Part shown: positions 3,401 through 9,400 of the stretch, piece by piece
How the letters are laid out: every line of letters begins with the position of its first letter
Numbering within the stretch: the first letter of the stretch is position 1
Origin: a virus
Taxonomy: Duplodnaviria > Heunggongvirae > Uroviricota > Caudoviricetes
IMG/VR virus record: IMGVR_UViG_2531839449_000043
Reading direction: 5' to 3' (one strand)
DNA length: 52,541 nt
Made by a program: the position numbers

Positions 3401-6400
3401 AACGTTCGCTGACGCCATGTAATAACGCCCGTTGTAAAGAATTGCTGTGCCGGGTTTAACGTCCTCGCGAGAAACTAATGCGGTTCCGTAGTGAGGTTTG
3501 AGCATGACAAATCCTCCGGTTAATTAATCCAGATATTTAATTTAATCCCCGATATGTGGTCGGGGATGGGGTTAATTAAAGATTTACGTTGAAACCAAAG
3601 CGGGAAGACTTTTCTGATGTACGGGAAATATCCAGCAATTTACGGCGCATTTCTTCCGTCAGATGCTTGAAGGCGTTAAATTCGGCGACAGCTGCATCGA
3701 CGTTATAGCCGTTACGACGTAATTCATTAAATATGCGCATTGCAGGGCTTGGCATGTCGAATAAGACGGAGGTATCAAGCTGCAATGTATTTCTATCAAC
3801 ATAGTTCATCGTGGCATAGGGGTGATGCTCTGAAAACCACGATAAAGGGAAATTGATATTCATCGCAGGATAAGACAGGGCCAGTTGTTTCTGTTCCCAT
3901 AGTTGTTTTTCCATGCGATCGAATTCAGCAATGTAGGCTTCCTTGAATGCAGCTGCTTTTTTGCCGGTGAAGCCCATCACCAGAAAAACGAATCCGTTTT
4001 TGGTGATTTGGTACATTGGGCGTTGTTCGCCTTTGGCGTCGGTGTAGGTAACGTCCGCAAAATTGCGGGCGTTAAATTCCGTAGAACAATCCATCAATCG
4101 GATTTTTTTTAAAACGTCGTCGTGCCGCTTGTCAAAAAATTCAGCAATAGCAATAGACGTTGTGACAACGCGACCATTGGTAATGGTGATTTCAGGTTGA
4201 GAAAGGGCAGGGATAGTAGCCATAATGGCAGCCTCCTTGATTGGTGATTGAGAACCACCGCAGGAGGTCCTAAGCTCGCTGGCGGTGGACTGTACAGGGT
4301 TAGGACTACTGGCAATCAAGGGAACCAGCCCGACCGAAGTCGGCCCCATACAGCCCACCATTGATAAGATGTGCGTGTATATCGATACAAAAAAAGACGC
4401 TGGCGCGTCTGTATCGCCTCGATTGTCAGCGGGGTCCTAATCCCGACACCCGTTTTATAAGGTGTTCGCCAAATATAGCCCCCGACATCACACGCAGTCA
4501 ATACCGTCCTTTCTCAGAAACGCTTTGGCGGTGCCGCCTGCACCCCAAAACATTCCCTGTATTGGTCAGCGCCAACTTCCTGCCAGTGTTGCCCGTTCTC
4601 ACGCCGTTCTCGCTCTCGCGCGGGGATACTCTCTCATCGACCGGATCGCACCCGATGATACAGCACGTTTACGTGTAGGGGTCTAAACAGGTCATTGACG
4701 CTGTAAAGCTCCAGGTTGTTAAAGAGCATTTTGCGGCGGGTTAAGTCGCGCCGTACGACTGATTTATGTAGCCCTGTGTAAGGGCGCGATGTTTCTGGCT
4801 TGGGTAAAATATAATAAGTGCAACTGATCATAGTCAATAGCGAGACTAATAATCTGGTTTAATTTTAATCTATGTGGTTGATTTTTAGATTAATTTATTT
4901 ATGTAAAAAATATAAGCGAGGATAATGCAGGTGGTGAGTTATGGAGGATGCGCAAAGAAAAACCGGCGCTGAGGCCGGTTACTCTGTGTGAGATTTGGCG
5001 TGAGGGAAAAGCCCCCGGATAACACCAAGAAAAGCAGCGAACAGATTCAGAGTTGAAGCAGCGGTCACCGCAATGAGCACTTCATCTGAAAATATTTCTT
5101 TCCCCATGGCGCGGCCTGTGGCAGACAACAACAAAACAGTAGCCCACCAGTAAAGCCCATACTTGGCAACTTTATAGGCTTTTTCTGCAAATTTTTCTCT
5201 TAATTCCCTGTTAGATTTTGCATCTGCTGCGCGCTGGGCGTTTAAATTATCTCCATCTGATGAAGATTCTGTCGTTGGTGGCGTATCTTCAAGGCTTGAT
5301 ATCTCTGTGCCTGGAAATTCTGCTCCGTTCGGGATTGTGATTTTTTCAAGTTCAGACATCAATGAATGTGGTTTGCCATATCAGTATGAAGAATTGGGCC
5401 ACCATCAGGTTGACCTTTACTCCATGCCGCGTTTGGTGCATGGGTCATGTTAGAAAGCTCGGTTCCGCTGTAGCTGCCGTATACCTCAACAATTTTGTCG
5501 ATCAGCCTCCCGGTTTCTGTGTCACCATTCTGAATTGTCGGTGTGATTCGTTTCCATTCTCCATCTGAATCAATGATGATGCTGATCATTTCCTGTATTT
5601 CATTGCTCCCATATTTCTTTAACATGTGATACAGGTGCGGTATTACAGGCCCGTAAGGCCACCGCGCAAACAGATCGTCGAATAATGGCTTTCCGTTGAA
5701 TAGTTTCAGATGCCACGACTGAGTATAGAACAACAATTTTTGTAGCTTCATCGGAGTTAAATCTTTGATCTCTCCCCGCTTAGCCTTGTCAATAAAGGCG
5801 TTAGCTACGGCAGCAGCTGAATATGCCATGCTCTACTCCGCATTTTGCGAAATTAAATGTATCACCGGATAGAATACAACAAAAAGCAAATTAGAAAAAC
5901 TGATAGAGAGGGGCGGAGGAAAAAGTTAGAGGTGAACAGCAGTCACGAGTCAAAGAAAACCCGGCACAGAGGCCGAGCTAGATCTTAAAGTATTTATCTG
6001 GTCCTGCACTCATTCAGTGGAGTAGGGGCCAAGAAATCGTACTCCGTTGAAGTGAATAAGATGAGAAGGTGCATCAGCCACCCATACCTCTGTTTCCCAT
6101 GCGATTTCACCAAGATATCGTCCCATGATGGAGCGATTTGGAAAAGCGGTCACATAGACAAGTCCGGCTGTTGATCCGGCAAACAGCCTGGCAAGCTCAG
6201 CATGCCGCTTCCCATCAACCGGTCCATGACTGGTGACAGACTCAACCAGTAGCAGCCAGTTTTTCGCAGTAAAATGTAGCACCACATCTGGCATTTTACC
6301 GTGTGAATCCACATCAACACCTAGCCCGGCCAGCAGTGGAGCGTCGAAGTAGCCCCACTTTTCGCCAGTGTCGCCAGCATAGACCAGCACGCTACCCGGA

Positions 6401-9400
6401 GCAAAACGTGGGGCGAAGTCCTCTATTATGGCACGGATAAGTTCGCTGTGCTCGCCGGGACTGAGGGTTATTTGCTGGCCCGCAGCAATTTCAACAGGGA
6501 TACGATTCTGTTCGCGCTCCTTAGCATAGCGGGTAACCAGCGTTTCACGCTCGGCTAAATAGGTTGCAAGGCTATCGTGCCATGCCGGGCTGCCGAAAGT
6601 TCGTAGCATGGACAGAGCAGCAGGTTCGATCTGATAAACAGCCTTCGGGCTGTTCACTGGGCGATCGGGCTTGTCCGGATTGTAGAGGGCTACTCCAGCA
6701 GCGCAGAACTGATGCATAGACTGGCGGCGGAATGTCTCACGAGTATTGGGTGCGTAGACCTTGCCGTAGTGCTCCCGAACCCAATTCATGATTGGTGTAA
6801 TGCCCACAAGCGGATTTTCCGCGTCGGCCCATGCTTTTCCCGGTGTGAGGTTCAGGAGTGCCAGCAAACACAAAGCAGAACGCTCATTCTGCTGCGCTCT
6901 GGGCAGGCCTAAGGATGCTATAATTTGCTGAGCGGCCTCAATATAATCATTTTGGTTGTTCATGCAGTCAGAGCTCCTAGCTTAGCGTCAATATGTTCTT
7001 GCGTGAGAGTTTCTTGTTGCATAGCCCACTTGCCAAGCTCTATCAGAGTGTCACGGCTTGGGTACTTAATCATCTTGAGGTCGGTTGCATTGACCTGTGT
7101 ATGCCCGTTGAATCGACGGAAATACTTATCCACTGCGGTAGTGTTCAGGAACACGGCCAAGCCACGGGCCAGCGCCTCGGGTAACCCATGTTTGTTCTCA
7201 TGAAACACGTTCATGTGATTTTCAAATCCCAACACTGAATACTCACTGAAGGTAGCAGGATCAACGACGCTTGCTACCACTCGGCGCTTTTCCTCCTTCG
7301 ACGAGAAACGACGCACCACACAATAAAAACCGTTCGGGTAAAGCCACTTTTCTGTCTCGTCGTTGCGCATGATTGCGTTGGGTTTCTTCAAACCTTCCAC
7401 AGGCCAGACAGTGCTACTCATACTCAAATGGCTCGGGTAGATCAGGGGAACAGTTCCTTCTTCGGGCATGCTGCGCAAATGAGCTTTCAGTCGGAAATCA
7501 ACTATCGGTCCGGTCGATACCTTCACGCCAATATCAGCCAGCGAACATTGTACGGCGGATGATAACTCAATGGCGCTTTTCTCGTGCGTGGTCGGCACAT
7601 GAATAAACCGCTCCGAATCGTCCGGGTACACAATCTGGTCAAATGGGTGTTCGTAGGTGACCAGGTCAAAAAAGCTATCATCGGTCGAAGTTGTGACTGT
7701 AACAGCCTCCTGAAGGCCTCCACGCTCCAAGCGGATGATAATATTTTCCTGCAACACATCGTCATCCCTGAAAGCCTTGCTACGTGATTCGAACAAATGA
7801 ATATGGCGGATTGCCGCATGCTCAAGTATGAAATTACGGAACGGACGGTAATACGGTCCGTTGCAGAAACTACGTGGGATTATGGCCACTATCTGCCCGC
7901 CAGGCGCAACCTCACCCACAGCGAGTGCAACAAAGGCGGAATACAAATTTACCGTCTCGATACCGACAGTGCGAAGGGCCTGCCGGTGGGCTGAGTGGCT
8001 ATTGATCTTCTTGTAAGGCGGATTAAGTATTGCATGGGTATAACCTCGATCCTGTAGACCTTCGGCGGTCGCCAGCTCAATATAATCCCCTTCGATGATG
8101 CGGGGCGTCACTCTCCTGTATCCGGTTAAGTGCTTCGCAAGGTGACCACACAGCTTTTTGTCGATCTCGTAGGCTGTTGCCTCGACAGACTCAAAGCCAA
8201 ACTCGCCAATCAGCCAACGGTCGAGAAAGGCACAAGACAGCGCGCCTAGGCCAGCGCCTGCGTCCAGTAGACGGCAAGTTTTCATTGTGCTCGGTGGAAA
8301 CAAGGAGGCCATAAAACGGGCCACGCCAGAAGGCGTCATGAACTGGCCGAACTCTGCTTTGTGTTTACGCGCGGTACGGGGAGACAGCTCGCGACGCACG
8401 CTGTCTGCGACGTCTAGCTTTTGAAGCATAACTAATCCTCTTTACGTGGCATGATGATGCCAACGTGCTTTTGACATCCTCCACATTCTTCAGGCGTGAA
8501 GGATGTCAAATCACTCTGTGAGCTCAATCAAAAGTCTCATCATTCCACTGCGATTTGATGACCTTTCCGACAAACTGGCAGTTTTCGTTACACTCAATCA
8601 TGTCGAATCGTGGGTTGAGCGGCTCCAGGTACGCTTTACCGCTCTCACGAATGAATCGTTTGAAGGTGAATTCATCGCCATTCATTCGGGCCACGCAAAA
8701 ATCGCCATCCTCAATCTCCCGCTCAGGGTCAACGAGTATCAGCATCCCTTCAGGGAAACTGGGCTTACCACCCTGTGGCGCGGTCATTGAATGCCCCTTG
8801 ACTTCCAGCCAGAACGACCTGTCACTGGCTTTTGTGGTGGTGGAGATCCACTTTATCGCATCCTTCTGTGTGTACGAAAAATCATCCATTGTGAATGCGC
8901 CAGCCTGTACGCAGGAGAGTAACGGATATTCGTAATATTTCTCGAACAGGTTACGCCTGTTTCCGGGAGTGTGGGTACGAATACTGCGTAACAAATCACT
9001 CAGATCTGGATTAATTTCTTCCGCAGGAACCTGTAATAAAGCCGCAAACTTAAGGGTATTTTCAGTATTTAACGCAATTTTTGCGTTCAATAACTGACTA
9101 ACAGCCCCCTGCGTTTTGAAGCCGAGGATATCTGCGGCTTTTTCCTGGCTTAGGGATAGCTGTTTCCGTTTTTCATCCCAGATTTTGCGCAGTCGTTCAG
9201 CGTTCTGGATGTCTTTGTCAGTAATTGTAATTTTCTTTGTCATAGTGCCTCCAATTTTATTAGCAACACAAATATTTATCAAATAGCTAGACTATTGACA
9301 TTTAAATCAGGTAAGCTAATATCGGAAAATTGAAATGGGAGGATCTCTATGACTCTTGACGAGTACTTGAGACAAAGCTCTATCAGACAAGCCGATTTTG

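Follow-up and report, generated by a model that had tools for sequence, protein, structure and literature searches.

The 52,541-nucleotide (nt) virus sequence IMGVR_UViG_2531839449_000043 (Caudoviricetes; this whole stretch is referred to here as the window) carries a gene pair directly 3' of its cI repressor gene and co-oriented with it on the minus strand, which raises the question of what system the pair encodes and how it is tied to the prophage that carries it. The window is an Stx2 prophage because stx2A starts at 15386; three tRNA genes lie before it. The original prediction, made from the sequence alone, had proposed that 6010-8429 holds a Type II restriction-modification (R-M) pair made up of a gamma-class N6-adenine methyltransferase and a 317-aa candidate endonuclease, and both open reading frames (ORFs) were found as described. 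Our analysis identifies the pair as an intact copy of EcoGIII, a Type IIP R-M system and PstI isoschizomer, with a probability of about 0.93.

The gene pair encodes an intact Type II restriction-modification system

The methyltransferase gene (M; 6960..8429, minus strand) encodes a protein of 489 aa and the endonuclease gene (R; 6010..6963, minus strand) one of 317 aa. The genes are separate, adjacent and co-oriented with a 4-nt overlap, which is the arrangement of a Type II R-M system. The PADLOC profile MTase_II matched M from end to end (1e-247) and REase_II matched R (1.6e-168). We considered whether either ORF could be a chance reading frame and rejected this for both, given the strong family profile matches of M and R. 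Both genes form a real, intact R-M pair.

M was evaluated by its motifs and by profile searches. The protein contains DAGAG at residue 56 (motif I) and NPPY at residue 136 (motif IV) and continues for about 250 residues past the catalytic region. Read from these motifs the layout is that of the gamma class, with the S-adenosylmethionine (AdoMet) motif I before NPPY and a long C-terminal region, and the predicted motif order was therefore upheld. M also matched Pfam Eco57I (2.6e-9, residues 125-220) and phrog_1600 (4e-301). A sequence search of the PDB with M returned one weak match to a generic methyltransferase and no solved close homologue.

Among the top 150 cluster representatives at 50% identity, 19 proteins were at least 780 aa long, the size expected of M-R fusions. 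P0121, the one fusion compared in detail, is colinear with the window pair and shows 45% identity to M and 62% to R, so the M-then-R order is conserved in this branch. Outside E. coli, several of the nearest relatives have about 840 aa, and PADLOC PDLC03359 and phrog_1639 are of the same length. The split arrangement of the window, with its ATGA overlap, is one frameshift away from an M-R fusion such as P0121.

The candidate endonuclease proved to be a two-domain protein of the BsuBI/PstI family. An N-terminal winged-helix domain (Pfam PF17728, BsuBI_PstI_RE_N, 1.2e-54, 184.4 bits) is followed by a C-terminal nuclease domain (PF06616, BsuBI_PstI_RE, 4.6e-61, 205.2 bits), with gathering cut-offs of 27 for these scores. 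The crystal structure of SdaI (2ixs) aligned with R residues 8-315 (1.2e-77) and paired D226 with D233, E241 with E248 and T244 with K251 of SdaI. Residue conservation was assessed in a MAFFT alignment of 73 sequences consisting of the window R, SdaI and 71 diverse homologues. The homologues were 50%-identity cluster representatives because the best 120 word-indexed protein matches were near-identical E. coli copies that are uninformative on conservation. The catalytic residues of R were kept throughout this set (P225 in 73/73, D226 in 72/73 and E241 in 69/73) and threonine was the most frequent residue at position 244 (43/73). As judged from the alignment, R has the normal PD...E core of its family, a PD-(D/E)XK fold.

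A dead nuclease was suspected from T244, which stands at the position of SdaI K251. This was rejected as threonine is the family majority and the protein is the same as the R of P13374/C227-11, which is reported active. PstI and BsuBI, the CTGCAG prototypes, and SdaI (CCTGCAGG; PDB 2ixs) belong to the same endonuclease family and share the two-domain architecture of R, although the homology between SdaI and R is distant only and far below the near-identity seen among EcoGIII alleles.

The genes meet in an ATGA (6960..6963, minus strand), read directly from the sequence, in which the R start codon (ATG, 6963-6961) overlaps the M stop codon (TGA, 6962-6960); the surrounding sequence is gactgcATGAacaac. 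AGGAG is found about 10 nt 5' of the R start and AGAGGA 6 nt 5' of the M start. The original prediction had M translationally coupled to R, and the overlap makes such coupling possible. The PstI genes, which we take to be divergently transcribed, differ in this respect from the EcoGIII-type genes here, which are co-oriented and overlapping. The spacer between the cI end (8524) and the M start (8429) measures 94 nt. No ORF for a C-protein helix-turn-helix (HTH) controller was present between the cI stop and the M start or between M and R.

The pair is an allele of EcoGIII

Both proteins were compared with their counterparts from sequenced prophages, as had been suggested when the pair was first noticed. 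The closest named copy was ORF30/ORF31 of phage P13374 from the 2011 O104:H4 outbreak, in which R was identical (317/317) and M matched at 483/489 residues (98.8%). The R-M DNA of P13374 (nt 14584-17032) is itself 100% identical to that of the O104:H4 strains C227-11 and 2011C-3493. The EcoGIII copy of C227-11/P13374 shares with the window pair the protein lengths of 317 and 489 aa, the M-then-R order, the ATGA overlap, the cI-M spacer and the site directly 3' of cI. The near-identity of both proteins together with the same context as the Stx2a prophage copy of C227-11 assigns the pair to EcoGIII. P13374 differs from the window in six M residues, in the N-terminal (immunity) half of cI and in lacking a roughly 1-kb gene pair with a Panacea domain.

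Other alleles were similarly close. Identity to the O145:H28 RM13514 proteins was 97.8% for R and 98.0% for M, and identity to O157:H7 ECP19-598 was 100% for R and 99.2% for M. The six M residues that are unlike the C227-11 allele are at positions 74, 145, 204, 239, 282 and 286. I74, H145, H204, L239 and A286 are also found in the RM13514 allele and H282 in the O157 ECP19-598 allele. The exact M allele of the window is already in NCBI in several E. coli assemblies, for example O111:NM K6728.

The R protein of RefSeq RM13514 (4211-5164 of our record L001) and that of P13374/C227-11 (3571-4524 of L003) differ at 7/317 residues (97.8%). PMC3893438 gives the R gene of RM13514 as 100% identical to that of C227-11, unlike the RefSeq RM13514 protein. 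The window R is the C227-11 form and not the RM13514 form.

EcoGIII was named in E. coli O104:H4 C227-11 (Fang et al. 2012, as cited in PMC6602927, PMC3893438 and PMC4288162). PMC6602927, citing Fang et al. 2012, describes EcoGIII as characterised and PstI-like, a Type II system that both methylates and cuts CTGCAG, gives protection from lambda-like phages and alters growth and the expression of about 1,900 genes. In O145:H28 RM13514, 98.8% of CTGCAG sites carried N6-methyladenine (m6A), with 0% in a sister strain that lacks the cassette (PMC3893438), and CTGCAG methylation was 100% in two O111:H- strains (PMC6602927). An additional methylated motif is thus on record for lysogens with near-identical alleles (98.8-100%) and is missing from strains without the cassette. 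Cloned EcoGIII in recipient cells reduced conjugative plasmid transfer (PMC4288162). By its identity to the P13374/C227-11 copy (100% for R, 98.8% for M) and the published methylomes and biochemistry, the window pair would likewise recognize and cleave CTGCAG. The R-M pair is already known and has been published since 2012; the window adds another allele and another mosaic context, in an Stx2 prophage backbone that is itself common.

Predicted action in the lysogen

In the mechanism we propose, M would use AdoMet to methylate the adenine of CTGCAG at N6, on both strands and in the lysogen chromosome as well as the prophage. R would recognize the site through its N-terminal winged-helix domain and cut unmethylated CTGCAG in incoming DNA with its C-terminal PD...E nuclease domain, so that the lysogen would restrict unmodified phages and plasmids. 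With M placed before R and the two joined by the ATGA overlap, M would be made first and R production would depend on M, which would delay and limit R during establishment. Establishment in a new host could in this way be possible without a C-protein controller. Protection of the lysogen, as originally proposed, fits the reports on EcoGIII, with restriction of lambda-like phages described in PMC6602927 and restriction of plasmids in PMC4288162. Stx2 lysogens, including the 2011 O104:H4 clone and O157, O145, O111, O103 and O26 lineages, gain an extra barrier to phages and plasmids. They also acquire a CTGC(m6A)G mark throughout the genome, with reported effects on the expression of many host genes. 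Stabilisation of the prophage by post-segregational killing is also plausible.

Position relative to cI, promoters and terminators

The cI gene (8524..9243, minus strand; HTH and S24 peptidase domains by Pfam) lies directly 5' of M. Its counterpart in RM13514 is annotated as a 239-aa LexA-family protein. Promoters were located by consensus scans. The sole good leftward sigma-70 match 5' of the R-M genes was a PRM-like candidate upstream of cI (TTGATA-17-TAAAAT, 9282..9254, minus strand). No match of at least 9/12 was found in the 370 nt 5' of M, and a relaxed scan of 8425-8800 gave matches of 8/12 at most. A weak candidate was found in the cI-M spacer (ATGTCA-15-(TG)CATCAT, 8477..8451), with an extended -10 (TGgCATCAT) at about 8459-8454. 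Two further candidate leftward promoters were found beyond the cassette at 4837..4808 and 4501..4472 (minus strand).

The left end of the module is marked by a terminator-like hairpin with a T-run (5958..5979, minus strand), 31 nt past the R stop, identified by scanning and by allele comparison. The hairpin and T-run are kept in P13374 and O157 ECP19-598, even though stem and loop have a different sequence there and homology ends immediately beyond them. The left BLAST breakpoint of the module is 5991. A long hairpin without a T-run occupies the cI-M spacer (8470..8510, minus strand), detected as inverted repeat I8 and by RNA folding. Its arms measured 15 nt in the repeat scan and 16 bp in the RNA fold and were unchanged in four alleles. 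The RNA fold of the spacer had an energy of -37.1 kcal/mol (z = -4.3). The loop of this hairpin (8488-8494) reads CCTGAAG in the window, P13374 and RM13514 and CCTGCAG, an EcoGIII/PstI site, in O157 ECP19-598 (L002).

The original prediction had compared the position of the cassette to that of ral and sieB in lambda, and this was not borne out. On the lambda map rexA-rexB lie directly 3' of cI and ral/sieB lie beyond pL and N. The ral/sieB analogy was rejected in favor of rexAB, as the cassette is on the cI side of the candidate leftward promoters and has its own terminator-like hairpin. Like lambda rexA-rexB, it would be an exclusion or defence cassette directly 3' of cI, co-oriented with it and before the leftward early promoter region. 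The two are unrelated in sequence and in mechanism; Rex acts by abortive infection and the cassette here by restriction-modification.

The cassette travels with the C-terminal half of cI

Homology to the R-M module extends on its right-hand side into cI to about 8935, where there is a breakpoint. The cI gene is a mosaic. P13374-type phages share its S24 peptidase half at about 96-98% DNA identity but diverge in the HTH half and on the cro side; the overall protein identity to the P13374-type repressor is 68.6%. The 2.8-kb R-M region matched 98 phage records, almost all of them Stx-converting, at 95-99% identity. The same 98 records matched both the R-M genes and the cI 3' half and only 23 matched the whole of cI, so the R-M genes travel with the C-terminal half of cI over at least two immunity types. 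As read from these alignments, the breakpoint between immunity types lies inside cI and the R-M genes are linked to its 3' half. The R-M region was also found in 147 of 5426 complete E. coli genomes (in 134 over at least 80% of the query) and was on the chromosome in every case.

The Stx2a prophage of O145:H28 RM13514, and also the O103:H2 12009 and O111 prophages, carry a BsuBI/PstI R-M system and share the whole early region with the window. Against RM13514-type prophages this early region showed 98.7% DNA identity over 10.8 kb, with 99.6% for cI and the Panacea pair present. The window is nevertheless a mosaic, as its R-M segment is nearer to the O104:H4/O157 allele than its flanks are.

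Operator repeats were searched for in the cI-cro spacer, along with copies elsewhere that would locate OL/pL, and none were found. This agrees with PMC4587872, which describes this Stx2a phage group as having no recognisable operators and no cII or cIII homologues and places a bsuBI R-M system 'at the corresponding region'. The replacement of lambda-type early regulators by R-M genes is thus already published (PMC4587872).

Alternative explanations

Expression of the cassette can be explained in more than one way. The M and R genes are most simply the distal part of the repressor operon and are most likely expressed in the lysogen as lambda rexAB is, because they lie between cI and the leftward promoter candidates, lack a strong promoter of their own and end in a terminator-like hairpin. 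R-M cassettes usually move with their own promoters, and M and R could instead be an autonomous unit driven by the weak promoter in the cI-M spacer and insulated from cI by the conserved hairpin. The two conserved hairpins within the 94-nt spacer and the candidate at 8477..8451 speak for such a unit, and the same extended -10, together with our use of simple consensus scans to support co-transcription with cI, may weigh against the operon reading. However, no promoter match of at least 9/12 precedes M within 370 nt, the spacer hairpin has no T-run and so is not an intrinsic terminator, and the cassette is always joined to the same cI 3' half, which makes an autonomous unit a possible but on balance doubtful explanation. 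Returning to the repressor operon, we tentatively suggest, at somewhat under even odds, that cI, M, R and the terminator are hard-wired into one unit. Restriction and methylation would then be strictly tied to lysogeny and would fall on SOS induction, and the invariant spacer hairpin would set the cI:M:R ratio by acting in processing or stability. Such an operon, if real, would account for the constant association of the cassette with the cI C-terminal half in different immunity types.

The assignment to an active EcoGIII and its role in defence were weighed in the same way. An orphan methyltransferase followed by an ORF that is not a nuclease is refuted by the two BsuBI/PstI domains (1e-54 to 1e-61), the SdaI match (1e-77), the PD...E core and the identity to the P13374/C227-11 R. 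Several points do weigh against our identification. M differs from M.EcoGIII at six residues; the results of Fang et al. 2012 are cited here second-hand, through later papers; and CTGCAG was neither avoided nor enriched in the window (12 sites as compared to 15.2 expected), leaving no signature of selection. As M is 98.8% and not 100% identical to the C227-11 protein, and as residues 239, 282 and 286 lie past the catalytic motifs towards the gamma-class target-recognition region, the substitutions might have produced an inactive or differently specific relative of EcoGIII. We consider this very improbable, as five of the six residues occur in the RM13514 allele, which methylates 98.8% of CTGCAG sites, H282 occurs in O157 ECP19-598, and several E. 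coli assemblies carry exactly this M sequence. Moreover, both genes are intact and R matches the characterised copy at 100%, although failure of M beside an active R would kill the cell. Other Type II systems have been established to cause post-segregational killing, and an active pair could have been selected mainly as an addiction module directed at cells that lose the prophage, as an epigenetic regulator of the expression of host genes, or as both. The tight linkage of the cassette to cI in every phage record of the immunity family is consistent with such a role, as is the reported influence of EcoGIII on growth and on the expression of about 1,900 genes (Fang et al. 2012, as cited in PMC6602927). 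Protection from lambda-like phages (PMC6602927) and from incoming plasmids (PMC4288162) is, however, what has been reported, and the literature examined reports no prophage-loss experiment. A main role other than defence appears unlikely to us, and these roles and defence are not mutually exclusive.

Recognition sites and the left arm of the window

The first 12.3 kb of the window (1-12370), which hold the recombination genes, the R-M genes and the immunity and replication start regions, contain no CTGCAG; all 12 sites are at or beyond 12371.

Between cI and a gam-like gene (2698..2979) the window encodes M, R, a Panacea-domain protein, a 127-aa protein, a Rha/Ant-family regulator, a Kil-like protein and one hypothetical protein, and family matches revealed no N-like gene among them. 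The original prediction had stated that no N-like ORF of 60 aa or more is visible in this interval, which holds in substance but not to the letter, as the 4362-4978 spacer contains two mechanical ORFs, of 61 and 67 aa. Both were considered as N-like candidates and rejected as they are unannotated in related genomes and have no N-like family match, and as the region holds the IsrK and C4 RNAs. In the literature searched there was no match for an antiterminator of phage P13374.

Just left of the R terminator is a two-gene cassette (4979-5829, minus strand), the genes of which also overlap by 4 nt. The first encodes a Panacea/SocA-like antitoxin-domain protein (5359..5829, Pfam 4.5e-22) and the second the 127-aa protein, which has hydrophobic membrane-like segments (4979..5362, phrog_33656). 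The pair also comes with a terminator-like site of its own (4980..4961), 88% identical to that following R. It is present in RM13514 and absent from P13374 and O157 ECP19-598, and looks like a PanA-type toxin-antitoxin moron.

Two small RNAs were identified with Rfam on the minus strand, the C4 antisense RNA (RF01695, 78.9 bits, 4278..4365) and the Hfq-binding RNA IsrK (RF01394, 61.7 bits, 4390..4465). They lie just 5' of, and overlap the start of, a Rha/Ash/Ant-like gene (3576..4361, minus strand). The promoter-like site at 4501..4472 and a terminator-like site at 4410..4395 are consistent with IsrK. This region is reminiscent of two antirepressor modules, P1 immI and Gifsy-1 IsrK, and may provide left-arm control in a phage without N. 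In its C-terminal part (about 3576-3858) the Rha-family protein shares homology with the C-terminus of P13374 ORF26 (L003 1239-1913), which carries the unverified record label 'antitermination'. P13374 has ORF26 and a separate Rha-like ORF29, and the window has a single hybrid gene.

At its start the window carries the C-terminal part of an IS3-family transposase (10-438, plus strand), which is IS1203/IS629-like according to the annotation of matching genomes. This fragment adjoins the exo/recT end of the prophage.

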